Shown here: positions 1,398 to 46,798 of the stretch, in pieces
Layout of the letters: every line of letters begins with the position of its first letter
How positions within the stretch are numbered: the stretch's first letter is position 1
Virus record (IMG/VR): IMGVR_UViG_2690316161_000023
Location: 1 to 47,532 of that record
Reading direction: 5' to 3' (one strand)
Length of the DNA: 47,532 bases
From: a virus
Lineage: Duplodnaviria > Heunggongvirae > Uroviricota > Caudoviricetes
Notes under the pieces: model-generated
Databases searched by the model: none
Seen by the model: the letters and a program-made list of their open reading frames with translations, nothing else
Told to the model about the DNA's origin: nothing
Translations under genes and position numbers: made by a program

Positions 1398-1987
1398 TCA
1401 TTTATCTCCGACCGGAAACTTCTTATACAAAGTCGATACGCCAACATCATAGATGATCTCCACATTCTGGCGATGAACTCCTGATGCAATTAGTCGCCCG
1501 GCCTGCGCCCATTGTTCTGATGAAAGTTCGGGACGGCGACCGCCAATTCGTCCCTGTGCGCGAGCAGCTTCCAGTCCAGCTTTTGTTCGTTCAACAATCA
1601 GTTCACGCTCCATTTCAGCCAGGGCACCCATGACATGAAAAAAGAAACGGCCATTGGGGTGCTGGTATCAATACTGTCAGTCAGGCTTCGGAAATTCACG
1701 CCACGCTGACGCAACTCTTCTATCAGCGTAACAAGATGCCGCATACTGCGCCCCAACCTGTCCAGCTTCCAGACAACCAGAGTGTCTCCTGCCGATAGTG
1801 TCCTGAGCAGTTTTTTAAGCCCCGGTCTGTCGGACTTAGTGCCACTGATTTTATCCTCAAAAACCCGCTCACATCCCGCGCAGTTCAGTGCATTACGTTG
1901 CAGATCGGTGTTCTGGTCATTTGTTGATACGCGTACATAGCCAATAAGCATGTTAAATCCCCTTGGTAAAAGCAGGAATGATGCCAT
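1398..1987 (-). pseudogene. pin: Pin/Gin/Hin-family serine DNA invertase, frameshifted
   Basis: Two overlapping ORFs (1598-1987 catalytic part MLIGYVRVSTNDQ...; 1398-1631 C-terminal HTH part MGALAEMERELI...) in different frames; the join reads PMAVSFFMSW where family members have PMGRFFFHVMG, consistent with loss of one G. Confidence 0.8.
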
Positions 1988-2520
1988 TTGCTTGTTATTT
2001 CTGCATTTTCATAAACGTTGGTTTGGGAGAAGGCTCTGCATTACCGGTTGGGGTGCCTGTTCCGTGGCCTTCAGCCACTCCGCCAACAGGCTGGCTGAAA
2101 TGCAACGGTGCCGCTTTTTCTGCTGAAGAATACCCGGAACTGGCAAAGGCTTATCCGGCAAATAAATTGCCTGATTTACGTGGTGAGTTTATTCGTGGCT
2201 GGGATGACGGGCGTGGTATTGATGCTGTACGTGCCTTGCTAAGTCTTCAGAATGGAGGAGTGGAATCACACACCCACCAAGGGCAGCTCTTCAGAGTTAG
2301 TGATTATCGTACAAAAGAAATACCAGCATCAGAAGTTATGGGAAGAGGATATATTGCAAGCCTGACGCCGGGTGCTGATAGCCCACTTGATTTTGATGAT
2401 TATCCTGTATCTTCTAATCCAAATGGATATTTTGTCGGGAATCAGAGAACAACAGCATATGGGATAAATGAAACCCGTCCACGGAATATTGCATTTAACT
2501 ATATCGTGAGGGCTGCATAA
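1963..2520 (+). CDS. Alternate tail-fibre C-terminal segment (Sv'-like), not fused to a fibre N-terminus in this copy
   Basis: Residues from [15 protein letters not shown] onward are identical to the C-terminus of the 285-aa fibre at 7502-8359; the upstream part of the ORF is not fibre sequence. Confidence 0.6.
   Translation: MVKAGMMPFACYFCIFINVGLGEGSALPVGVPVPWPSATPPTGWLKCNGAAFSAEEYPELAKAYPANKLPDLRGEFIRGWDDGRGIDAVRALLSLQNGGVESHTHQGQLFRVSDYRTKEIPASEVMGRGYIASLTPGADSPLDFDDYPVSSNPNGYFVGNQRTTAYGINETRPRNIAFNYIVRAA
2006..2031. other. hix/gix-like 26-bp crossover site (outer site of copy A, invertase side)
   Basis: ttttcataaacg-tt-ggtttgggagaa; the ggtttgggagaa half is shared with the site at 7992-8017. 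Confidence 0.5.
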
Positions 2521-3122
2521 TGGATAACGCTGTATTAAATAGCGAGTTTATTGCTACAAAGGCGGGGAATATTACCGTCTATAACTATGATGGCGAAACA
2601 CGGGAATATATTTCCACATCAACTGAATATCTTGCCGTTGGTATCGGTATCCCTGCATATTCCTGTTTAGATGCCCCTGGCACATACAAAGCTGGTTATG
2701 CAATCTGCCGATCTGTAGATTTTAACTCATGGGAATATGTGCCAGACCATCGCGGTGAAATCGTCTTTAGCACCGAAACAGGAGAATCAAAAGAAATCAC
2801 AGCTCCGGGTGATTACCCTGATAATACAACCACTATCGCCCCGTTAACGCCATACGATAAATGGGATGGTGAGAAATGGGTGACGGATACCGAAGCACAG
2901 CATAGCGCCGCAGTAGATGCAGCAGAAGCACAGCGCCAGTCACTGATTGATACTGCAATGGCTTCAATCAGTCTGATTCAGCTGAAATTGCAGGCCGGAC
3001 GTAAACTGACGCAGGCAGAAACAACCAGCCTTAACACTGTGCTGGATTACATTGACGCGGTGACGGCAACAGATACCAGCACCGCGCCGGATGTCATCTG
3101 GCCTGAACTGCCGGAGGCGTAG
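2520..3122 (+). CDS. Tail fibre assembly protein (cognate to the Sv' segment)
   Basis: 200-aa ORF directly after the fibre C-terminal segment; identical copy at 6900-7502. Confidence 0.7.
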   Translation: MDNAVLNSEFIATKAGNITVYNYDGETREYISTSTEYLAVGIGIPAYSCLDAPGTYKAGYAICRSVDFNSWEYVPDHRGEIVFSTETGESKEITAPGDYPDNTTTIAPLTPYDKWDGEKWVTDTEAQHSAAVDAAEAQRQSLIDTAMASISLIQLKLQAGRKLTQAETTSLNTVLDYIDAVTATDTSTAPDVIWPELPEA

Positions 3123-3534
3123 GCCATTCAATATCTGGCGCACTGGCGGTATCGACCAGCTCCAGTGCGCCCAGATAATCCAGCCACAAATTATATTGTG
3201 CCAGTTCCTCACCTTTCAGACGACCAATAGCTGCTTTACCAGGCCATTGCTTACCGTTCATGTAATCATTGGCTAAATCTATTCTTTTTTGCTTCTCCAC
3301 ATCAGCAGCGACAATTAATTCTTCTCGTGTAAGTGGAGGAATATCACCCCATGCTGGCATGTTATTTAAAGTTATAAGTTGCTTACCTGTAGGGGGAGTG
3401 CCGGAAAACTCATAATAAATGCTGTCACTAACGTTAATGGCATCATGTGGCCAACAATTATTATCAACATAATCAGCCTGCCACTCGATGGCATAAAAAC
3501 GGGACTCAGATGGACTGAACACAAAACGATTCAT
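3094..3534 (-). CDS. Tail fibre assembly protein (cognate to the Sv segment)
   Basis: 146-aa ORF directly after the fibre gene 3536-4201; identical copy at 6488-6928. Confidence 0.7.
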   Translation of the reverse strand: MNRFVFSPSESRFYAIEWQADYVDNNCWPHDAINVSDSIYYEFSGTPPTGKQLITLNNMPAWGDIPPLTREELIVAADVEKQKRIDLANDYMNGKQWPGKAAIGRLKGEELAQYNLWLDYLGALELVDTASAPDIEWPTPPAVQAR

Positions 3535-3535
3535 A

Positions 3536-4201
3536 TTAATATCCTATAGCTAAAAACATAGCGTCTGAGGTGTTTGTATTTACAGCAATATTCATCATGA
3601 CCTGAGCGGTAAATCCTGTATTGCTTACCCACTCGCATGAGTTAGTTATCTGAACCCATGTTAATTTGGTAGAAAAAACGCCCCAGCAATTAACAGGGAA
3701 CGGGACAGGGAAAGTCACTGGCACAGAATTTACTACACCGACAGTAGTCAAATTTGCGAGCGTCCGGCGAAACACCTGAATCTTAAGACCATCAGGACCT
3801 GTAAATAACAAATTATCGGTGTACTGCCCGCTTGCTCTTAAACCAAGGTTTTCGAGAGCCGTTTTCACTGTGCCGTCCGATTTGATATCGCCAAACGGAT
3901 TTTTGCGGCTCAGGTATTCAACAGCAAACCCCGATCCAAGCAATTCAACAAAACCGGGCAGATCACCATTATCAAGCACATCCCGTTGCGTTTTGTCACT
4001 TACAAACTGGGCCAGAGCTGCAGCAATAAAGCTGGCCTGTCGAATGGCTTTGTTCACCTGCGCACTGGATGCTTTCCCTGCTGTAAATCCGGATAAAAGC
4101 GCAGGCAACGCTTCCCATTCCTCCTGCGACATAACATTGGCATTTCGATCCGTTGCAAACGCTTTAAAGTCATTTTTCGCCATCAGAGTAATACTCCCCA
4201 T
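3536..4201 (-). CDS. Tail fibre protein, constant N-terminus fused to the Sv variable C-terminus (copy A)
   Basis: 221 aa; first ~120 aa identical to the 285-aa fibre at 7502-8359 and diverging after ...TALENLGL. Confidence 0.72.
   Translation of the reverse strand: MGSITLMAKNDFKAFATDRNANVMSQEEWEALPALLSGFTAGKASSAQVNKAIRQASFIAAALAQFVSDKTQRDVLDNGDLPGFVELLGSGFAVEYLSRKNPFGDIKSDGTVKTALENLGLRASGQYTDNLLFTGPDGLKIQVFRRTLANLTTVGVVNSVPVTFPVPFPVNCWGVFSTKLTWVQITNSCEWVSNTGFTAQVMMNIAVNTNTSDAMFLAIGY
3833..3858. other. hix/gix-like crossover site inside the tail fibre gene (copy A)
   Basis: tgctcttaaacc-aa-ggttttcgagag resembles the recalled Hin hixL site; lies exactly where constant and variable fibre sequence meet. 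Confidence 0.6.
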
Positions 4202-4863
4202 GCTCCTACATCAAAACCACTGATGAATTCGTTATCCATATCAAAACCAAAAAATTTTGAGCCTTCCGATGGGGTTTCCACCGAAGGTGTTTCAATGCCA
4301 CCCGCCCATACCCCGGCGGCTTTTACTGTGAGATACCCCTGTTTAATTGCCGCAATTAACTCACGCGATACATCTGAAATATCAGTATCAGGAAAGACCC
4401 AGACCGATATCGTCATGTCCTGGTTATCGACTATCTGCATTCGCAGCCCGGATCCTGCTGTTGCAGCGTCAAGAATTGCCGGAAGAGAATCATTCCGTCC
4501 ATCCCAGTTATTAATCGCAATCTTCGCTTTAAGAATGACACGATAAGTTTCATCGCTGAGGTACATGTATCCGGAATCAGGATCGTATGGTCCCTGCCAT
4601 ACCCCCTGATCATATCCAAGCCCGTCGGTATCCCAGCTGAAATAGACACCTGAGATAGGCTGGCTGACAACACGGCTACGTCCGATCCACAATCCCAGAA
4701 TGTCAAGTTGCACACCAACCGCAGAGTCAATATCAAATGCAGTAATCAGCCCTCTGGTGGCAGCCGCAACATCAATAAGCGGCCGGGTCATCAGATCAAC
4801 ATGCGCAAGAAATTTAGGTTTAGTGGCGTGGTAGTTCGTGATTAGTTCGGTGTATTTGCTCAT
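4183..4863 (-). CDS. Baseplate/tail protein (Mu gp48 / P2 gpI-like), copy A
   Basis: 226-aa ORF between the baseplate J-like gene and the tail fibre gene; identical copy at 8341-9021. Confidence 0.55.
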   Translation of the reverse strand: MSKYTELITNYHATKPKFLAHVDLMTRPLIDVAAATRGLITAFDIDSAVGVQLDILGLWIGRSRVVSQPISGVYFSWDTDGLGYDQGVWQGPYDPDSGYMYLSDETYRVILKAKIAINNWDGRNDSLPAILDAATAGSGLRMQIVDNQDMTISVWVFPDTDISDVSRELIAAIKQGYLTVKAAGVWAGGIETPSVETPSEGSKFFGFDMDNEFISGFDVGAWGVLL

Positions 4864-6059
4864 GACTCCACCGTTATAACGATATTTTCCGGGGTACAGG
4901 ACGCAGATTCGTTGTATCTGATATCAATGTTTGATGACGACAAAGCCCCCGGGGATTTCCCAATCGTCAGTTCCTGAATATCGTAATAGCGTGCATCCCC
5001 GCCACTCACCACGCCAAGATTCGCCGGTGAGTAAATGCGACTTAAAAGGACCGAATCACCAATCATCAGACTATTGATATAGTCGGAAATAGCCTGCTGG
5101 ATCTGCTGCCCTATCTGTGAGGTATAACCCGTAAAAACTTTTAATTTAATCCGGGCATAAACAGGCACATCACTGGAACGCGAGAATTTGATTACATGGG
5201 GATTGCCGTATTTATCCGGAACCGTAACGGATGTTGTACCGTGAGTGGCTGTCCCCTGGCCTTTATTCCCTCTGATAGCCTGAGCAATATCCGTCACATC
5301 ACCGCCATCCACAATTACAGCAACAGAGTGTGGCGGTAACCCGTTACCGTCCTCCGAACCAGTATCGTTTTCATAGAGTTTGTGGCGGGTTACACCGGTA
5401 ACATTAGAAACAGCACCATCCAGTGCTTCAAATGGGGTTATTGATGGCAACGCAACACTTTGCGACTGACGGATACGTAACTCCGCGTCAGTTTCTGCCG
5501 GAGTGCCCACAGTAGCCGCAGCAGGATTAGTTACCGAAACCCAGCCACGGGTTGGCGTATTAATTTCAGTGATAGTTCCAGCCAGCGCCGCCACTGCACC
5601 ACTGACGGAACATGTTGCGGTCGCCATCACTGTACCATCCACGCCGACCACTACTGAAGCAGGCAAACGCCATATCACATTATTACTGTCTTTCACGCTG
5701 CCATTAATGATGGTTGTTCCGGCAGTTCCTGCAAGAAGCAAATCAACCGTAGAGTTCGTCGCGCCTTTACGTGAAATACCATTTATTTTCACGTTACTGG
5801 TCAGTGCAGCCCCATAGCCGGTTGCCGGTGAAAAACAGTTGTAGACAGTTATCGCCATATTATTGGCATCATGAATCGCCAGCGCCATCAGAGCCACCAT
5901 CTGGCCGTCTTTGCTGTCCGGTTCGAGGTAGGCATCACTGCCATAAATCTGCTGAAAATAGCTAATCAGGGTGCTGAGTATCGTCTGATAATCAGGCGCA
6001 CTGATCCCCTCCGCGGTTACCTTTGCAGATAAACCGAGAGAATCAAGGTTCAGAGCCAT
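4860..6059 (-). CDS. Baseplate J-like protein, copy A
   Basis: 399-aa ORF in the baseplate wedge position; differs from copy B (9018-10217) by one residue (D here, N there). Confidence 0.65.
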   Translation of the reverse strand: MALNLDSLGLSAKVTAEGISAPDYQTILSTLISYFQQIYGSDAYLEPDSKDGQMVALMALAIHDANNMAITVYNCFSPATGYGAALTSNVKINGISRKGATNSTVDLLLAGTAGTTIINGSVKDSNNVIWRLPASVVVGVDGTVMATATCSVSGAVAALAGTITEINTPTRGWVSVTNPAAATVGTPAETDAELRIRQSQSVALPSITPFEALDGAVSNVTGVTRHKLYENDTGSEDGNGLPPHSVAVIVDGGDVTDIAQAIRGNKGQGTATHGTTSVTVPDKYGNPHVIKFSRSSDVPVYARIKLKVFTGYTSQIGQQIQQAISDYINSLMIGDSVLLSRIYSPANLGVVSGGDARYYDIQELTIGKSPGALSSSNIDIRYNESASCTPENIVITVES

Positions 6060-6174
6060 TACGCCTCCGATGTAACAGTCGTTATTCCATAAAGAGTGTC
6101 GATTTCAGCGGAAAACATGACACGTCGGGTCGTGGTATCCACTGTCGTATTGAAAGAGAGGATTGATTTAACGC
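6060..6174 (-). pseudogene. Duplicated 3'-terminal fragment of the gp46-like baseplate gene
   Basis: ~115 bp matching 10218-10332 (last ~37 codons of the 117-aa gene) with no 5' part. Confidence 0.7.
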
Positions 6175-6189
6175 ATTGGTTTAAGAGCA
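6164..6189. other. Duplication junction formed on a crossover-like site
   Basis: tgatttaacgca-tt-ggtttaagagca: gp46 3' sequence joined to the Sv-side half-site. Confidence 0.5.
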
Positions 6190-6210
6190 AGCGGGCAGTA
6201 CACCGATAAT

Positions 6211-6486
6211 TTGTTATTTACAGGTCCTGATGGTCTTAAGATTCAGGTGTTTCGCCGGACGCTCGCAAATTTGACTACTGTCGGTGTAGTAAATTCTGTG
6301 CCAGTGACTTTCCCTGTCCCGTTCCCTGTTAATTGCTGGGGCGTTTTTTCTACCAAATTAACATGGGTTCAGATAACTAACTCATGCGAGTGGGTAAGCA
6401 ATACAGGATTTACCGCTCAGGTCATGATGAATATTGCTGTAAATACAAACACCTCAGACGCTATGTTTTTAGCTATAGGATATTAA
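6211..6486 (+). CDS. Sv-type tail fibre C-terminal segment, inverted and unfused (copy B)
   Basis: 91 aa identical to the C-terminus of the fibre at 3536-4201 but on the opposite strand; homology begins at the site near 6178. Confidence 0.6.
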   Translation: MLFTGPDGLKIQVFRRTLANLTTVGVVNSVPVTFPVPFPVNCWGVFSTKLTWVQITNSCEWVSNTGFTAQVMMNIAVNTNTSDAMFLAIGY

Positions 6487-6487
6487 T

Positions 6488-6928
6488 ATGAATCGTTTTG
6501 TGTTCAGTCCATCTGAGTCCCGTTTTTATGCCATCGAGTGGCAGGCTGATTATGTTGATAATAATTGTTGGCCACATGATGCCATTAACGTTAGTGACAG
6601 CATTTATTATGAGTTTTCCGGCACTCCCCCTACAGGTAAGCAACTTATAACTTTAAATAACATGCCAGCATGGGGTGATATTCCTCCACTTACACGAGAA
6701 GAATTAATTGTCGCTGCTGATGTGGAGAAGCAAAAAAGAATAGATTTAGCCAATGATTACATGAACGGTAAGCAATGGCCTGGTAAAGCAGCTATTGGTC
6801 GTCTGAAAGGTGAGGAACTGGCACAATATAATTTGTGGCTGGATTATCTGGGCGCACTGGAGCTGGTCGATACCGCCAGTGCGCCAGATATTGAATGGCC
6901 TACGCCTCCGGCAGTTCAGGCCAGATGA
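6488..6928 (+). CDS. Tail fibre assembly protein, inverted copy (copy B)
   Basis: Identical to 3094-3534, opposite strand. Confidence 0.7.
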   Translation: MNRFVFSPSESRFYAIEWQADYVDNNCWPHDAINVSDSIYYEFSGTPPTGKQLITLNNMPAWGDIPPLTREELIVAADVEKQKRIDLANDYMNGKQWPGKAAIGRLKGEELAQYNLWLDYLGALELVDTASAPDIEWPTPPAVQAR

Positions 6929-7502
6929 CATCCGGCGCGGTGCTGGTATCTGTTGCCGTCACCGCGTCAATGTAATCCAGCACAGTGTTAAGGCTGGTTG
7001 TTTCTGCCTGCGTCAGTTTACGTCCGGCCTGCAATTTCAGCTGAATCAGACTGATTGAAGCCATTGCAGTATCAATCAGTGACTGGCGCTGTGCTTCTGC
7101 TGCATCTACTGCGGCGCTATGCTGTGCTTCGGTATCCGTCACCCATTTCTCACCATCCCATTTATCGTATGGCGTTAACGGGGCGATAGTGGTTGTATTA
7201 TCAGGGTAATCACCCGGAGCTGTGATTTCTTTTGATTCTCCTGTTTCGGTGCTAAAGACGATTTCACCGCGATGGTCTGGCACATATTCCCATGAGTTAA
7301 AATCTACAGATCGGCAGATTGCATAACCAGCTTTGTATGTGCCAGGGGCATCTAAACAGGAATATGCAGGGATACCGATACCAACGGCAAGATATTCAGT
7401 TGATGTGGAAATATATTCCCGTGTTTCGCCATCATAGTTATAGACGGTAATATTCCCCGCCTTTGTAGCAATAAACTCGCTATTTAATACAGCGTTATCC
7501 AT
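6900..7502 (-). CDS. Tail fibre assembly protein cognate to Sv' (copy B)
   Basis: Identical to 2520-3122, opposite strand. Confidence 0.7.
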   Translation of the reverse strand: MDNAVLNSEFIATKAGNITVYNYDGETREYISTSTEYLAVGIGIPAYSCLDAPGTYKAGYAICRSVDFNSWEYVPDHRGEIVFSTETGESKEITAPGDYPDNTTTIAPLTPYDKWDGEKWVTDTEAQHSAAVDAAEAQRQSLIDTAMASISLIQLKLQAGRKLTQAETTSLNTVLDYIDAVTATDTSTAPDVIWPELPEA

Positions 7503-8359
7503 TATGCAGCCCTCACGATATAGTTAAATGCAATATTCCGTGGACGGGTTTCATTTATCCCATATGCTGTTGTTCTCTGATTCCCGACAAAATATCCATT
7601 TGGATTAGAAGATACAGGATAATCATCAAAATCAAGTGGGCTATCAGCACCCGGCGTCAGGCTTGCAATATATCCTCTTCCCATAACTTCTGATGCTGGT
7701 ATTTCTTTTGTACGATAATCACTAACTCTGAAGAGCTGCCCTTGGTGGGTGTGTGATTCCACTCCTCCATTCTGAAGACTTAGCAAGGCACGTACAGCAT
7801 CAATACCACGCCCGTCATCCCAGCCACGAATAAACTCACCACGTAAATCAGGCAATTTATTTGCCGGATAAGCCTTTGCCAGTTCCGGGTATTCTTCAGC
7901 AGAAAAAGCGGCACCGTTGCATTTCAGCCAGCCTGTTGGCGGAGTGGCTGAAGGCCACGGAACAGGCACCCCAACCGGTAATGCAGAGCCTTCTCCCAAA
8001 CCAAGGTTTTCGAGAGCCGTTTTCACTGTGCCGTCCGATTTGATATCGCCAAACGGATTTTTGCGGCTCAGGTATTCAACAGCAAACCCCGATCCAAGCA
8101 ATTCAACAAAACCGGGCAGATCACCATTATCAAGCACATCCCGTTGCGTTTTGTCACTTACAAACTGGGCCAGAGCTGCAGCAATAAAGCTGGCCTGTCG
8201 AATGGCTTTGTTCACCTGCGCACTGGATGCTTTCCCTGCTGTAAATCCGGATAAAAGCGCAGGCAACGCTTCCCATTCCTCCTGCGACATAACATTGGCA
8301 TTTCGATCCGTTGCAAACGCTTTAAAGTCATTTTTCGCCATCAGAGTAATACTCCCCAT
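7502..8359 (-). CDS. Tail fibre protein, constant N-terminus fused to the Sv' variable C-terminus (copy B)
   Basis: 285 aa; same N-terminus as 3536-4201; C-terminus identical to the segment at 2020-2520. Confidence 0.72.
7992..8017. other. hix/gix-like crossover site inside the tail fibre gene (copy B)
   Basis: ttctcccaaacc-aa-ggttttcgagag. Confidence 0.6.
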
Positions 8360-9021
8360 GCTCCTACATCAAAACCACTGATGAATTCGTTATCCATATC
8401 AAAACCAAAAAATTTTGAGCCTTCCGATGGGGTTTCCACCGAAGGTGTTTCAATGCCACCCGCCCATACCCCGGCGGCTTTTACTGTGAGATACCCCTGT
8501 TTAATTGCCGCAATTAACTCACGCGATACATCTGAAATATCAGTATCAGGAAAGACCCAGACCGATATCGTCATGTCCTGGTTATCGACTATCTGCATTC
8601 GCAGCCCGGATCCTGCTGTTGCAGCGTCAAGAATTGCCGGAAGAGAATCATTCCGTCCATCCCAGTTATTAATCGCAATCTTCGCTTTAAGAATGACACG
8701 ATAAGTTTCATCGCTGAGGTACATGTATCCGGAATCAGGATCGTATGGTCCCTGCCATACCCCCTGATCATATCCAAGCCCGTCGGTATCCCAGCTGAAA
8801 TAGACACCTGAGATAGGCTGGCTGACAACACGGCTACGTCCGATCCACAATCCCAGAATGTCAAGTTGCACACCAACCGCAGAGTCAATATCAAATGCAG
8901 TAATCAGCCCTCTGGTGGCAGCCGCAACATCAATAAGCGGCCGGGTCATCAGATCAACATGCGCAAGAAATTTAGGTTTAGTGGCGTGGTAGTTCGTGAT
9001 TAGTTCGGTGTATTTGCTCAT
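8341..9021 (-). CDS. Baseplate/tail protein (Mu gp48 / P2 gpI-like), copy B
   Basis: Identical to 4183-4863. Confidence 0.55.
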
Positions 9022-10217
9022 GACTCCACCGTTATAACGATATTTTCCGGGGTACAGGACGCAGATTCGTTGTATCTGATATCAATGTTTGATGACGACA
9101 AAGCCCCCGGGGATTTCCCAATCGTCAGTTCCTGAATATCGTAATAGCGTGCATTCCCGCCACTCACCACGCCAAGATTCGCCGGTGAGTAAATGCGACT
9201 TAAAAGGACCGAATCACCAATCATCAGACTATTGATATAGTCGGAAATAGCCTGCTGGATCTGCTGCCCTATCTGTGAGGTATAACCCGTAAAAACTTTT
9301 AATTTAATCCGGGCATAAACAGGCACATCACTGGAACGCGAGAATTTGATTACATGGGGATTGCCGTATTTATCCGGAACCGTAACGGATGTTGTACCGT
9401 GAGTGGCTGTCCCCTGGCCTTTATTCCCTCTGATAGCCTGAGCAATATCCGTCACATCACCGCCATCCACAATTACAGCAACAGAGTGTGGCGGTAACCC
9501 GTTACCGTCCTCCGAACCAGTATCGTTTTCATAGAGTTTGTGGCGGGTTACACCGGTAACATTAGAAACAGCACCATCCAGTGCTTCAAATGGGGTTATT
9601 GATGGCAACGCAACACTTTGCGACTGACGGATACGTAACTCCGCGTCAGTTTCTGCCGGAGTGCCCACAGTAGCCGCAGCAGGATTAGTTACCGAAACCC
9701 AGCCACGGGTTGGCGTATTAATTTCAGTGATAGTTCCAGCCAGCGCCGCCACTGCACCACTGACGGAACATGTTGCGGTCGCCATCACTGTACCATCCAC
9801 GCCGACCACTACTGAAGCAGGCAAACGCCATATCACATTATTACTGTCTTTCACGCTGCCATTAATGATGGTTGTTCCGGCAGTTCCTGCAAGAAGCAAA
9901 TCAACCGTAGAGTTCGTCGCGCCTTTACGTGAAATACCATTTATTTTCACGTTACTGGTCAGTGCAGCCCCATAGCCGGTTGCCGGTGAAAAACAGTTGT
10001 AGACAGTTATCGCCATATTATTGGCATCATGAATCGCCAGCGCCATCAGAGCCACCATCTGGCCGTCTTTGCTGTCCGGTTCGAGGTAGGCATCACTGCC
10101 ATAAATCTGCTGAAAATAGCTAATCAGGGTGCTGAGTATCGTCTGATAATCAGGCGCACTGATCCCCTCCGCGGTTACCTTTGCAGATAAACCGAGAGAA
10201 TCAAGGTTCAGAGCCAT
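9018..10217 (-). CDS. Baseplate J-like protein, copy B
   Basis: 399 aa; one substitution relative to copy A. Confidence 0.65.
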   Translation of the reverse strand: MALNLDSLGLSAKVTAEGISAPDYQTILSTLISYFQQIYGSDAYLEPDSKDGQMVALMALAIHDANNMAITVYNCFSPATGYGAALTSNVKINGISRKGATNSTVDLLLAGTAGTTIINGSVKDSNNVIWRLPASVVVGVDGTVMATATCSVSGAVAALAGTITEINTPTRGWVSVTNPAAATVGTPAETDAELRIRQSQSVALPSITPFEALDGAVSNVTGVTRHKLYENDTGSEDGNGLPPHSVAVIVDGGDVTDIAQAIRGNKGQGTATHGTTSVTVPDKYGNPHVIKFSRSSDVPVYARIKLKVFTGYTSQIGQQIQQAISDYINSLMIGDSVLLSRIYSPANLGVVSGGNARYYDIQELTIGKSPGALSSSNIDIRYNESASCTPENIVITVES

Positions 10218-10570
10218 TACGCCTCCGATGTAACAGTCGTTATTCCATAAAGAGTGTCGATTTCAGCGGAAAACATGACACGTCGGGTCGTGGTATCCAC
10301 TGTCGTATTGAAAGAGAGGATTGATTTAACGCCCCGCGTTTCGAGGATGCGCTTACGGATCGCCAGGTTGTAGGTTTCCGGCTTCTGCTTTCCGAGCACG
10401 GACTGGATCCACGGAGTCCCTTCGGTGGTGTCGAGAAACCATTGCCCATACCACAATTCGAATCGCGTTTTTACCGCCTGCGCCACGGCCTCCGGTGAGT
10501 TAATCAGCCAGGTGTCATCACCGCTGCCAAAGGTGTAATCGCCATCGGCGTCTTCACGTCTGTATCGCAT
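10217..10570 (-). CDS. Baseplate protein (P2 gpW / Mu gp46-like)
   Basis: 117-aa ORF between the gpV-like and J-like genes. Confidence 0.55.
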   Translation of the reverse strand: MRYRREDADGDYTFGSGDDTWLINSPEAVAQAVKTRFELWYGQWFLDTTEGTPWIQSVLGKQKPETYNLAIRKRILETRGVKSILSFNTTVDTTTRRVMFSAEIDTLYGITTVTSEA

Positions 10571-11387: not shown

Positions 11388-12113
11388 TCAGTTTATAAGC
11401 CCCATCTTACCGGCGCTTCGATAGTTAATTACATCGCCTGAAGAGCCGCAAGGCACAGCTACAGTCGACATTTTGACAAATCCTTTACCGCCCTGCTTTT
11501 GGCATAAAGTGGCATGCATTTTTGCTAAACGCGCAGCATGACCAAAATCAATTTTGGTTCCGTAAGTTGAATCTCGTAGAGCTGCTTTTTTGGCAATTCC
11601 AGTAATATTTTTGTCTTTAATTACAGATGCAAACAAACTCAAATCATTTCCAATTTGATTGAAGCAAGTACGATTAATATCAACATCGGCATACGCTGAA
11701 ATGCGTTTGCAATCTGAGATCTGAGAAAGCACAGATGTGTTAACCAGTTGCAAATTTAATTTGTAGTCACCGACATAGGTATAAACTTTGTTAGGGTCCG
11801 TGGTTCCCGGATAACGAGTTACGAATGGAATGCTGTTGTACGCATCTCGCAAAGATTCTGCACCCTTACTTTTAAGCTCGTTCCCAACACCAGCAACGAT
11901 AACCTCTGGATGTGAAACTTCAAATTGAGACTTTTCTTCGCGCTGTATTTGAAGCCTGCTTTTCTGGCTCTCCTCAACTTGCTTATCGTACGCTTGTTTT
12001 TCTTCATTTTTTTGGGATAGCCATTTTTCCTGCGCTTTAGCACCATTAGGATCCCAACTACATGAAGTTAAAAAAAGAGAAAATACGATTGTGGTTATCG
12101 CAAGCCTGCTCAC
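11388..12113 (-). CDS. Lipoprotein of unknown function (inserted gene within the baseplate operon)
   Basis: 241 aa; N-terminal signal peptide with lipobox LTSC; charged K/E/Q-rich segment; visibly AT-richer than neighbouring tail genes. Confidence 0.6.
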   Translation of the reverse strand: MSRLAITTIVFSLFLTSCSWDPNGAKAQEKWLSQKNEEKQAYDKQVEESQKSRLQIQREEKSQFEVSHPEVIVAGVGNELKSKGAESLRDAYNSIPFVTRYPGTTDPNKVYTYVGDYKLNLQLVNTSVLSQISDCKRISAYADVDINRTCFNQIGNDLSLFASVIKDKNITGIAKKAALRDSTYGTKIDFGHAARLAKMHATLCQKQGGKGFVKMSTVAVPCGSSGDVINYRSAGKMGLIN

Positions 12114-12115
12114 TA

Positions 12116-13180
12116 TTATGCACCTCGATTCATCGCTGACTGGCTAGGAATATCACTAGCACCTCGAGCAAAGCACATCATATCCATGTACCACGCCTGG
12201 CCCCTTGTGTCGCCAGTGTACATAATACCGCGCACAATATAAACGCCATCCGTTGCGATGCTGGCAGGCTGCGATGTGGTGCCGCTTAGCGTGATATTTC
12301 CATCCGTGTTCTGGTCGGTGATCTGACCACCAGCCATCGCAATATCGTTGTTCGACAAGGCGGTACGATACACGGAAGCCTGATCCAGCTGAATGAGTCC
12401 GTTAACCCGGATGTTCGGATTAATAAGCGCGCGGACGTTTACGCCGTTACCGATAGTCTGCTGCGGCATGCCAATAAGCCCGGTAGCGCTGTTGAGCACA
12501 ATCGCTTCATGAACATATTCGTTATTCGCCACCATCTGGCGCTGACCGTCCACGAATTGCCATGTTGCGCCACATTGCCCGGCTACGTTATCCATTAGAT
12601 GCCGCGTCATGCCAAAGAGTACCCGCCCCCGGGGGAATACAGTAGCAGGCATTTCAGGCGTCAGGCCTTCGGTCGCACCTTTGGCTTCGAAGTCTTTCAT
12701 CAGCGCACGGTTTACATCAGCGACCGTGTAACCGGCAGCCAGCGTCTGTGAGGTTATACTGGTGGCAAAAGCCAGATCAGTATCTGCTGCCTGAATCAGG
12801 ACGTAGGAATCAACCGGACTGTCTTTTCCTGTGACCGAGTAGCGAATTTCACCGCTGAAAATCAGTCCGTAGTTGCGGCCATCACTCTGACCCACGTCCG
12901 CCGCGTCAACTTCCCGCACGGTCCCGACGTCGCTTGCCGACACCTCCGGCGCGATACCGTCGTAACCGGCAATCAGACGCACTTTCGAAAACTCCTGCCC
13001 GGTGATTCGGTTCACAGTATCTGCCGAGAGGTTATAAATTTTGATAGTCCCTACCCGGGACGCGCTGCTGATGTTGAACCAGTCGATCGTAAAGGTGACT
13101 TTAAAATCACTTAGCTCAATTCCCTGACCGTTCCCGTCCACAAGCTGCAGCTCGAAATGTCTCATCCAGTTCTGTGACAT
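12116..13180 (-). CDS. Baseplate hub / tail structural protein (Mu gp44 or P2 gpD position)
   Basis: 354-aa ORF between the tape measure region and gpV-like gene; assignment by position. Confidence 0.45.
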   Translation of the reverse strand: MSQNWMRHFELQLVDGNGQGIELSDFKVTFTIDWFNISSASRVGTIKIYNLSADTVNRITGQEFSKVRLIAGYDGIAPEVSASDVGTVREVDAADVGQSDGRNYGLIFSGEIRYSVTGKDSPVDSYVLIQAADTDLAFATSITSQTLAAGYTVADVNRALMKDFEAKGATEGLTPEMPATVFPRGRVLFGMTRHLMDNVAGQCGATWQFVDGQRQMVANNEYVHEAIVLNSATGLIGMPQQTIGNGVNVRALINPNIRVNGLIQLDQASVYRTALSNNDIAMAGGQITDQNTDGNITLSGTTSQPASIATDGVYIVRGIMYTGDTRGQAWYMDMMCFARGASDIPSQSAMNRGA

Positions 13181-41458: not shown

Positions 41459-44134
41459 ATGAGCACCGATAAACAAGTTTACCCACTGTATTACGAAGCA
41501 AAAAATGACAAAGTAAGAAAACGTCTCGGTATTAAAGGCGGTTTCTACTGGGCTGAAGCGAAAAAATTATCCATTGCCATCTCCCGTGGTGCTGTTGCGA
41601 TTGACGATGCTGGCTACGATGAAGATGACTTTAAAAAACCTGTTCGCGTCAATTTGCCCGTTGTTGATGACCTTCCACCAGAAGGCGTATTTGATACGGA
41701 ATTCTGCAACCGTTACGAAAAAGGCGGGGAAGATGGCATCACAATGGTATTTATCGCGCCCTCATCCTCTGCGCAGGACAAGCCAGCCAGCACTGACAAT
41801 ACCAATGTTAATGGCGAAGACATGACGGAGATTGAGGAGAATATGCTACTCCCGATTTCCGGTCAGGAGCTGCCCATTCGCTGGCTTGCTCAACACGGCA
41901 GCGAAAAACCGGTAACGCACGTTTCACGCAACGAACTACAGGCATTACACATTGCACGAGCTGAAGAACTACCAGCTGTTACTGCCCTGGCTGTTTCCCA
42001 CAAAACCAGCCTGCTCGACCCGCTGGAAATTCGCGATCTCCACAAACTGGTGCGTGATACTGACAGAGTTTTCCCTAATCCAGGCAATTCAAGCCTGGGG
42101 CTGATGACTGCTTTTTTCGAAGCATACCTGGACGCAGACTACACCGATCGCGGTCTGCTGACAAAAGAGTGGATGAAAGGAAACCGTGTTTCACGCATCA
42201 CGCGCACGGCTTCCGGCGCTAATGCTGGCGGCGGGAACCTCACCGATCGCGGCGAAGGTTTCATTCACGATCTGACGTCACTGGCGCGCGACGTAGCCAC
42301 TGGCGTACTGGCTCGTTCAATGGACGTGGACATTTATAACCTTCATCCGGCACACGCTAAACGTGTCGAGGAAATTATCGCTGAAAATAAACCGCCCTTT
42401 TCTGTTTTCCGCGACAAATTCATCACCATGCCTGGCGGGCTGGATTATTCCCGCGCCATCGTGGTTGCGTCCGTAAAAGAAGCACCAATTGGGATCGAGG
42501 TTATCCCCGCACACGTCACTGAATATCTTAACAAAGTACTGACTGAAACTGATCATGCCAACCCTGATCCAGAAATCGTGGATATTGCCTGCGGTCGTTC
42601 CTCTGCCCCGATGCCGCAGCGTGTAACAGAAGAAGAAAAACAGGATGATGAAGAAAAACTGCAACCATCTTGCGCAATGGCAGATGAACAGGCAACGGCT
42701 GAAACAGTGGAACCGGATGCAACTGAACATCATCAGGACACGCAGCCGCTGGATGCTCAGTCACAGGTAAATTCTGTTGATGCGAAATATCAGAAACTGC
42801 GGGCAGAACTCTATGAAGCCCGGAAAAACATTCCGCCCAAAAATCCTGTCGATGCAGACAAATTACTGGCTGCCTCTCGCGGAGAATTTGTTGAAGGGAT
42901 TAGCGACCCGAATGATCCGAAATGGGTTAAGGGAATTGAAACCCGAGATTCTGTGAACCAGAACCAGCCCAAATCGGAACAAAACAACCAGAAAGCGGAA
43001 CAAAACAGCCAAAATGCACAGAAAAATGAGCCAGAAACGAAACAATCTGAACCAGTAGCGCAACAGGAACCGGAAAAAGTCTGTGCCGCCCGCGGTCAGA
43101 GCGGTGGCGGCAACTGCCCTGATTGTGGCGCGGTGATGGGCGACACCACATATCAGGAAACCTTTAATGAAGAAAATCTGGATGAATCTCAGGAAAAAGA
43201 TCCGGAGGAAATGGAAGGCCCTGAACATCCGCACAATGAGAATGCTGGCAGCGATCCGCATCGCGATTGCAGTGATGAAACTGGCGAAGTCGCAGATCCC
43301 GTAATCGCAGGAGACATAGAGCCTGGTATTTATTACGGAATTTCGAATGAGAATTACCACGCGGGTCCCGGTGTCAGTAAGTCTCAGCTCGACGACATTG
43401 CTGATACTCCGGCTCTGTATTTGTGGCGTAAAAATGCCCCAGCGGACACCACAAAGACAAAAACGCTCGATTTAGGAACCGCTTTCCACTGCCGTGTACT
43501 TGAACCGGAAGAATTCAGTAACCGCTTTATCGTGGCACCTGAATTTAACCGCCGTACAACCGCCGGAAAAGAAGAGGAGAAAGCGTTTCTGATGGAATGC
43601 GCAAGCACAGGAAAAACGGTTATCACTGCCGAAGAAGGCCGGAAAATTGAACTCATGTATCAGAGCGTTATGGCTTTGCCGCTGGGTCAATGGCTTGTTG
43701 AAAGCGCCGGACACGCTGAATCATCAATTTACTGGGAAGATCCTGAAACAGGAATTTTGTGTCGGTGCCGTCCGGACAAAATTATCCCTGAATTTCACTG
43801 GATCATGGACGTGAAAACCACAGCGGATATTCAACGATTCAAAACGGCTTATTACGACTACCGCTATCACGTTCAGGATGCATTCTACAGTGACGGTTAT
43901 GAAGCACAGTTTGGTGTGCTGCCAACTTTCGTTTTTCTGGTTGCCAGCACAACTGTTGAATGCGGACGTTACCCGGTTGAGATTTTCATGATGGGCGAAG
44001 AAGCAAAACTGGCAGGCCAGCAGGAATATCACCGCAATCTGAGGACCCTGGCTGACTGCCTGAATACCGATGAATGGCCAGCTATTAAAACGTTATCACT
44101 GCCCCGCTGGGCTAAGGAGTATGCAAATGACTAA
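41459..44134 (+). CDS. recE: Exodeoxyribonuclease VIII (RecE)
   Basis: 891 aa; C-terminal nuclease domain; overlaps and precedes recT. Confidence 0.8.
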
Positions 44135-44936
44135 GCAACCACCTATCGCAAAAGCCGATCTGCAAAAAACCCAGGGAAACCGTGCACCAGCAGCAGTAAA
44201 AAATAACGACGTGATCAGCTTTATTAATCAGCCATCAATGAAAGAGCAACTGGCAGCAGCTCTCCCACGCCATATGACGGCTGAACGAATGATACGTATC
44301 GCCACCACAGAAATTCGTAAGGTTCCGGCGCTAGGAAACTGTGACACCATGAGTTTTGTCAGTGCGATCGTTCAGTGTTCACAGCTCGGCCTTGAGCCAG
44401 GTAGCGCCCTCGGCCACGCATATTTACTGCCTTTTGGTAATAAAAACGAAAAGAGCGGTAAAAAGAACGTTCAGCTAATCATTGGTTATCGCGGCATGAT
44501 TGATCTGGCTCGCCGTTCTGGTCAAATCGCCAGCCTGTCAGCCCGTGTTGTCCGTGAAGGTGACGAGTTTAGTTTTGAATTTGGCCTTGATGAAAAGTTA
44601 ATACACCGCCCGGGAGAAAACGAAGATGCACCAGTGACCCACGTCTATGCTGTCGCAAGACTGAAAGACGGAGGGACTCAGTTTGAAGTTATGACGCGCA
44701 AACAGATTGAACTGGTGCGCAGCCAGAGTAAGGCTGGTAATAACGGGCCATGGGTAACTCACTGGGAAGAAATGGCAAAAAAAACGGCTATTCGTCGCCT
44801 GTTTAAATACCTGCCTGTCTCAATTGAAATCCAGCGTGCAGTATCAATGGATGAAAAGGAACCACTGACAATCGATCCGGCAGACTCCTCTGTATTAACC
44901 GGGGAATACAGTGTAATCGATAATTCAGAAGAATAA
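44127..44936 (+). CDS. recT: RecT single-strand annealing protein
   Basis: 269 aa from internal ATG ([17 protein letters not shown]...). Confidence 0.85.
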
Positions 44937-45468: not shown

Positions 45469-45756
45469 ATGGCAATGAATCTTGTGACACTCAAAACGTG
45501 GGGAAAACTCAGATATCCGGATAACCCACCATCAATATCAACGCTGAGACGATGGGCAAGGAATGGAAACATTTATCCTGCACCTGAACTACACGGGAGG
45601 AGTTACAGGGTGGTTCCGGAGGCTTTCTATATCAACCCAAATAAGGTTGATACCGATATAACACACCATCAGCCTAATGGGCGACAAGGGAGAGACAGTC
45701 CGTTACTGGAGAAGTTAAAACATGCAGCGGAAAAAATACGATCCCAATTTGCCTAA
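45469..45756 (+). CDS. Excisionase-like protein
   Basis: Small basic protein immediately upstream of and overlapping the integrase gene. Confidence 0.55.
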   Translation: MAMNLVTLKTWGKLRYPDNPPSISTLRRWARNGNIYPAPELHGRSYRVVPEAFYINPNKVDTDITHHQPNGRQGRDSPLLEKLKHAAEKIRSQFA

Positions 45757-46798
45757 AAACTTAACATATCGAAGGAGGGACAAAGCATATTACTGGCGCA
45801 ACCCTCTGACGAAAGAAGAATTTACACTAGGTAAAATTTCAAGAAGAGATGCAGTAGCGCAGGCAATTGAAGCAAATCATTATATATACAAAAACTACTC
45901 TCCTGCTGCCTTAATTGAAAAGCTTAAAGGGTTCGACTCATTTACTATGGCAGACTGGATTGAACGTTACAAAACGATTCTTATAAGGAGAAAAGTGTCC
46001 AGAAATACTTATAAAATTCGGGTAAATCAACTGGAGACAATAAAAGAAAAATTGGGGGAAATTTTACTGACAGAAATAACCACTCGCCATATTGCCGAGT
46101 TTCTTGATTTGTGGATTGAAGGAGGGAAAAACACAATGGCAGGATCAATGCGTTCTGTGTTGTCTGATATGTTTCGTGAGGCCATTGTTGATGGACGTAT
46201 ATCTCAAAATCCAGTAACGCCAACAAGAGCACCGAAAATAGTAGTTACAAGAGAACGACTGAAACTAAAGACATACAACTGCATCAGGGAGGCAGCAGAT
46301 CAACTTCCGGCATGGTTCCCATTAGCTATGGATTTAGCCCTTGTAACAGGACAACGTCGCGAAGACATAACGAATATGCGCTTTAGTGATATTTATGATG
46401 ATCGTCTCCACATCAGGCAAATTAAGACAGGAATGATGATTGCTATCCCCCTGTCACTCAGCCTTCCTGTCGCTGGTCTACGGCTTGGTACAGTAGTTGA
46501 ACAGTGCCGCCTGGTAAGCCGGGGAGATTATCTAATCAGTGCCGGGATTAGAAAAAACAGCCCTGACGGCAGCATTCACCCGGATGGCCTGACAAAAAAA
46601 TTTGTCGCAGCCAGAAAATTAACAGGTATCCAGTTCAGTGAAAACCCACCAACTTTTCACGAGATCAGAAGTCTGGCTGGACGATTGTACAAAGAAACAT
46701 GTGGAGAAGAATTTGCTCAGCGTCTACTTGGCCACACATCGGAGAAGACAACAAAAATGTATCTTGATGAGAGAGAAAAAACGTACTTACTACTCTGA
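45722..46798 (+). CDS. Tyrosine integrase (lambda Int family)
   Basis: 358 aa; lambda-Int-like N-terminus ([25 protein letters not shown]) and C-terminal catalytic region (...[15 protein letters not shown]); adjacent to the att repeat. Confidence 0.85.

Follow-up and report, generated by a model that had tools for sequence, protein, structure and literature searches.

A frameshifted Pin-type invertase gene in an Escherichia coli prophage, and a tail-fibre segment that still changes orientation

Background

Does the loss of its own DNA invertase lock the tail-fibre switch of a prophage? The question is raised by the stretch of viral DNA that we analysed (IMG/VR record IMGVR_UViG_2690316161_000023, 47,532 nucleotides, referred to throughout as the window), in which the gene for a Pin-like invertase is broken beside an invertible tail-fibre segment. 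Our reading, to which we give a probability of about 0.85, is that this gene is an inherited and decaying pseudogene of the Gin/Pin family, and that the segment beside it is still being inverted, most likely in trans.

The window starts in the E. coli genes yebW and pphA (1–936), beyond which it passes into the prophage, and this extends to a tyrosine integrase gene at 45722–46798. It is a temperate prophage of ~42 kb, integrated beside E. coli pphA, and its gene content includes RecE/RecT-like genes, a terminase, a portal protein, a tape-measure-like protein and a contractile-tail baseplate module. An 891-aa Exonuclease VIII (RecE)-like gene and a RecT gene occupy 41459–44936, in the early region that adjoins the integrase gene. 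Scans of the window for promoters and terminators gave nothing exceeding background, and no tRNA genes were found in it. The invertase gene is the first gene of the prophage and lies on the minus strand; no second serine recombinase was found in the 47.5-kb window, the tyrosine integrase being the sole other recombinase detected there.

The invertase gene and its lesion

The gene occupies 1398–1951 of the minus strand, a length of 554 nt, against 555 nt in its intact relatives. Read from the ATG at 1951, the minus strand encodes MLIGYVRVST...DSIDTSTPM, also given as MLIGYVRVSTNDQ...DSIDTSTPM, after which the frame is lost. This upstream frame (1598–1951, minus strand) contains invertase residues 1–100, with the Ser9 nucleophile and the catalytic core, followed by 17 out-of-frame residues, AVSFFMSWVPWLKWSVN, and a stop codon at 1598–1600. 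The rest of the gene is found in a downstream frame (1398–1652, minus strand) that is −1 relative to the upstream one. Read from 1652, it encodes GRFFFHVMGALAEMEREL...STLYKKFPVGDK, ending in YKKFPVGDK with a stop codon at 1398–1400, and it contains helix E and the HTH_7 DNA-binding domain, with the changes K142E and P160H at positions that are otherwise invariant. Alignment with five intact 555-nt alleles from complete E. coli genomes produced exactly one gap, at 1651–1652, where ATGGGCCGT has become ATGGCCGT. Here ATG-GGC-CGT (M100-G101) now reads ATG-GCC-GT, one G being gone from the GGG at codon 101, which on the plus strand appears as CCC reduced to CC.

When the G is restored, the product is a protein of 184 aa whose residues 1–181 align with Mu Gin (3uj3) with an E value of 1.5e-91. 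The upstream piece matches the Pfam Resolvase domain (PF00239) over model positions 2–112 (E 3.5e-37), and the downstream piece matches the end of the same model (positions 117–144) as well as HTH_7 (E 1.4e-10). The hallmark of the serine invertases, a Resolvase catalytic domain with the nucleophile in a GYVRVS-T motif, is present, and Ser9 is aligned with that of Gin. An uninterrupted reading frame of about 184–193 codons, on the other hand, is absent, the deletion at codon 101 being followed by a stop 17 codons on, and HTH_7 is not on the same polypeptide as the catalytic domain, since it is encoded only in the −1 frame after residue 100. These observations confirm that the gene is a Gin/Pin-family serine invertase split by the loss of one G.

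The preliminary description of this locus had proposed such a split, through the loss of one G from a G-run, and the single gap against the intact alleles bears this out, as does the comparison with orthologues, in which the repaired product runs end to end with Gin and the 555-nt E. coli alleles are intact. It had also placed the catalytic and DNA-binding halves in different frames. The frames do differ, but the break is not between the two domains, whose boundary is near residue 137; it falls within the catalytic Resolvase domain, at residue 101, where helix E starts (between Pfam positions 112 and 117 of 145). An extra G does restore the full frame, as anticipated, although the resulting invertase has 184 rather than ~190 residues. 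The start of the gene, which had been set at 1987, is the ATG at 1951, which matches Gin residue 1 and has AGGGGA just upstream.

With one G lost from the GGG at codon 101, translation from the normal start would yield a truncated product consisting only of the catalytic core (residues 1–100) and 17 wrong residues. Missing from such a product would be the DNA-binding helix-turn-helix and also helix E, on which the formation of dimers and tetramers depends.

Occurrence of the frameshifted allele

The identical 554-nt allele is found, base for base, in nine further assemblies (L012, L013 and L015–L021). Of 5,426 complete E. coli genomes, 16 have the exact 79-nt context of the lesion, among them those of ETEC H10407 and O103:H2 12009, while the same 79 nt with one added base, that is the intact version, occurs in about 706 records. 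All six of the records inspected (COL60J, 2011C-4251, H10407, FDAARGOS_1059, CS6L and 12009) bear the RefSeq label 'recombinase family protein, frameshifted'; the pseudogene is an ordinary one and already known, in that the NCBI annotation pipeline flags the same gene in related genomes. The frameshifted allele lies at two chromosomal sites, one on the pphA side and one on the yfhH side. The window allele is at least 99.3% identical to 15 of the 16 frameshifted alleles in complete genomes, and the divergent one, that of CS6L (94.4%), is a mosaic whose differences are confined to the first ~200 nt, where it matches other intact alleles. These comparisons show a single deletion event, followed by spread with the prophage module to at least two integration sites and by recombination that gave rise to mosaic alleles.

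Two of the related loci have peculiarities of their own. In COL60J the frameshifted allele (9099–9652 of the locus) is also without a start codon, the ATG having become ATA, and an IS3-family element (11916–13144) lies between the fibre gene and the wedge gene. The allele of assembly L014 (GCA_900449185.1, at about 9768) is 555 nt long and was considered as a repaired gene; it was rejected as such, the added base being a T in the T5 run at nt 89 and not the missing G. The baseplate-J gene of this assembly is split and other genes are broken, and the extra T and the split gene are probably long-read indel errors.

Sequencing error, recoding or decay

Beyond the break, the frameshifted alleles have diverged from the intact ones at the protein level. 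P145S, K163N and A165E are common to all frameshifted alleles, at positions that are invariant in the five intact alleles; P160H has been added in the sub-lineage of the window and K142E in the window's own allele, and at both positions 142 and 160 the residue in Gin is the same as that in the intact alleles. Since 15 of the 16 frameshifted alleles are so nearly identical to that of the window, a dN/dS estimate among them has low power, and it was replaced by a count of lineage-private changes relative to the nearest intact alleles. Past the break, the private changes number 5 non-synonymous and 0 synonymous, compared with 7 and 20 among the intact alleles (Fisher p = 0.004), although these counts are small and the three changes common to all frameshifted alleles could be older than the deletion, should they exist in an intact allele outside the sample. 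A protein search with the C-terminal 84 aa returned short or partial proteins only, including an exact 77-aa ORF (P0005).

It might be supposed that the true gene is intact and that the frameshift is a homopolymer sequencing or assembly error, a possibility that the preliminary description had allowed for. The change is indeed a 1-bp loss in a short G run, and its source is a draft scaffold. However, the run is only 3 nt long, the same allele recurs in nine further assemblies and 16 complete genomes from unrelated strains and at two chromosomal sites, and private non-synonymous changes have built up downstream of the break. An error is thus extremely improbable, and we regard the frameshift as real, the base call in the window resting on its identity with the other assemblies. 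A slightly better case, though still a very poor one, can be made for recoding, whereby a programmed −1 ribosomal frameshift, or transcriptional slippage on the T run, would produce the whole invertase, with G-R-F replaced by A101-V102-S103, and a low, tunable level of inversion. In its favour, a shift of −1 separates the downstream frame from the upstream one, inversion is ongoing in carriers of the allele (see below), and a slippery heptamer, T_TTT_TTC, is present in the zero frame at about 1636–1642 on the minus strand, 2 codons past the deletion. Recoding was therefore tested, as a −1 shift would restore the frame and the heptamer comes right after the lesion. The T run proved to be ancestral coding sequence for RFFFH, which every intact allele has, and no stimulatory RNA structure was detected in the 88 nt downstream, which fold no better than shuffled sequences (MFE −20.9 versus a shuffle mean of −20.2, z = −0.23). 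Neither conservation of the frameshift nor purifying selection on the downstream frame was seen, with 16 frameshifted records against about 706 intact ones and with private changes that are all non-synonymous and have removed the conserved K142 and P160. Moreover, the start codon is gone in COL60J, and the inversion can be explained by invertases acting in trans. Some low-level read-through could still occur, because the heptamer lies exactly where a −1 shift restores the frame, but all of the indications, on small counts, agree in pointing to a plain, inherited and decaying pseudogene.

The invertible segment and its continued inversion

Inverted 26-bp sites with central AA/TT are present at 2006–2031 and 3833–3858. 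The pin-side crossover site (2006–2031) reads TTTTCATAAACG TT GGTTTGGGAGAA and contains the published e14 repeat TTGGTTTGGGAGAAGG (PMC12529663), and the crossover site at the constant part of the fibre gene (3833–3858) reads TGCTCTTAAACC AA GGTTTTCGAGAG. The invertible tail-fibre segment (copy 1, 2019–3845) contains two fibre C-termini and two tail-fibre assembly genes arranged as convergent pairs, with Collar, Gp53-like_C and Caudo_TAP domains. An apparent second copy of the segment, discussed below, has a crossover site at 7991–8016 that reads TTCTCCCAAACC AA GGTTTTCGAGAG, as in all relatives. Of the 11 relatives scanned, 9 have the same crossover sites and 2 have the pin-side site alone. 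A variant inner half-site, GGTTTAAGAGCA, is seen at 3833–3846 and again at 6176–6189; as it is found at one segment end only, the ends of the segment are asymmetric, while the relatives examined have GGTTTGGGAGAA at both ends.

If the resident invertase is dead, the orientation of this segment could be expected to be frozen, as the preliminary description had proposed. This is contradicted by the genomes that carry the broken gene. The strains 2011C-4251 and O103:H2 12009 have an identical frameshifted allele at the same chromosomal site, and their segments are identical at 1,863 of 1,863 nt but lie on opposite strands. Likewise, both arrangements occur among the assemblies with the window allele, one in L012 and L014 and the other in L013 and L017, with a single copy of the segment in each. 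Since an identical broken allele accompanies the segment in opposite orientations, inversion goes on: the tail-fibre segment and its 26-bp sites are intact and are still changing orientation in lineages with the broken gene.

Opposite orientations among carriers of a dead allele would call for cross-acting invertases that work in trans. There is precedent for inversion by an invertase encoded elsewhere: the e14 segment is inverted by each of PinQ, PinR and PinE, the Hin segment is a substrate of Fin, and Mu G is one of PinE (PMC12529663). In every frameshift-bearing genome there are 2–7 places per chromosome that are homologous to pin. From these, together with the documented cross-action, we infer that Pin-family invertases of other prophages in the same cell most likely carry out the inversion in trans. 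The invertase genes gin, hin and cin are known to contain a Fis-dependent recombinational enhancer inside their 5' part. Because the DNA of the pseudogene has been retained, such an enhancer would persist in cis in this prophage.

Relationship to known inversion systems

The locus is similar to PinE and the P segment of e14. The invertase gene belongs to the same family, its homologues being named pinE in RefSeq, and the layout is shared, with the invertase and a crossover site followed by convergent tail-fibre C-termini with tail-fibre assembly genes. The 16-nt repeats of e14, TTGGTTTGGGAGAAGG and CCTTCTCCCAAACCAA (PMC12529663), are found verbatim at 2017–2032 and 7989–8004. Unlike in e14, the invertase gene here is frameshifted and one segment end has the variant inner half-site GGTTTAAGAGCA; in addition, the host element is a full-length prophage, whereas e14 is a 15-kb remnant, a cryptic prophage of E. 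coli K-12. The likeness to Mu Gin (PDB 3uj3, 4m6f) includes the Ser9 motif, the helix E sequence GRFFFHVMGALAE and, in the repaired product, the C-terminal HTH. In contrast to gin, the gene here does not form one open reading frame, and it has E and H in place of K142 and P160, which are conserved with Gin.

Frameshifts are common among the invertase genes of prophages, and this one matters little alone. What it teaches is that a tail-fibre switch is not necessarily locked when the resident invertase is dead, since several cross-acting Pin-family enzymes are usually encoded in an E. coli genome.

The apparent duplication and the joint at 6175

The window appears to contain the segment twice, in a region that covers 2013–10333. 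There is a perfect 1,834-nt inverted repeat between 2013–3846 and 6176–8009, copy 2 of the segment (6176–8009) being the perfect reverse complement of 2013–3846, and a block comprising the fibre N-terminus, the wedge gene and the baseplate-J gene is directly repeated with a spacing of 4,158 nt. The sole difference between the two copies of the baseplate block is at 4997 versus 9155: copy 1 has a C at 4997 (Asp355 of baseplate J), a private SNP, and copy 2 and 13 related loci have a T (Asn). The first 11,631 nt of the window are those of the public scaffold CYBY01000012.1 except at position 6175, which is the one place where the apparent 4,158-bp duplication creates a new joint and where the scaffold has an N (GATTTAACGC-N-TTGGTTTAAGAGC) and the window an A. 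This joint occurs in 0 of the 5,426 complete E. coli genomes, in which matches end at 6174 and resume at 6176, and none of the same genomes covers the duplication. A single-N join is also found at position 4068 of CYCB01000038.1, from the sister assembly L018, where host sequence beyond yebW is connected to the middle of the segment (window 7710); this join cannot be contiguous and looks like a scaffolding artefact at the same locus. Given the N at the joint, the N join in the sister assembly and a joint that is found in no complete genome, the duplication is unsupported as sequence, and it is probably the product of scaffolding or gap filling on DNA that held more than one arrangement. In draft assemblies, invertible segments give rise to artefacts of scaffolding, for instance arms that are duplicated on either side of a single N, and these may be mistaken for biology once the N has been replaced by a base.

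The preliminary description had taken the duplication at face value, as keeping both fibre variants expressed without inversion. In that case the invertase would be dead, the orientation frozen, and a real 4.16-kb tandem duplication would have fixed both variants for expression. Both arrangements are indeed in the scaffold, each with a complete fibre ORF and an assembly gene (3536–4201 with 3094–3534, and 7502–8359 with 6900–7502), one SNP, that at 4997, separates the two copies, and the break is in register with a pix-like sequence. We nevertheless find this unlikely, since the joint is an N in the public record, a sister assembly of the same accession series has a single-N join that clearly comes from scaffolding, neither joint nor duplication is present in the 5,426 complete genomes, and relatives with the identical pin allele have a single copy in either orientation. 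The opposite orientation of the two copies would itself have required inversion, and to that extent the orientation would not be frozen. A somewhat better candidate, though a tentative one, is that the joint at 6175 is a real crossover made by a Pin-type invertase encoded elsewhere, between a pix site and a secondary site at 10322–10347. This sequence, TGATTTAACGCC CC GCGTTTCGAGGA, lies inside a 117-aa sheath-initiator gene and scores 15/24 against the four half-sites, a value as high being found at only 0.13% of positions in what was a post hoc test. Its likeness to pix and its exact register with the joint in the scaffold make it a possible site of secondary recombination. The outcome of such a crossover, which is just as tentative, could be a 4.16-kb tandem duplication encoding both fibre variants together, or else an inversion of the 2.3-kb fibre-N/wedge/baseplate-J region in part of the culture. 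A real joint would be the product of an active invertase, which contradicts a frozen orientation. If this crossover did take place, then the prophage, whose own invertase gene is dead, would be subject to a Pin-type invertase encoded at another place in the genome.
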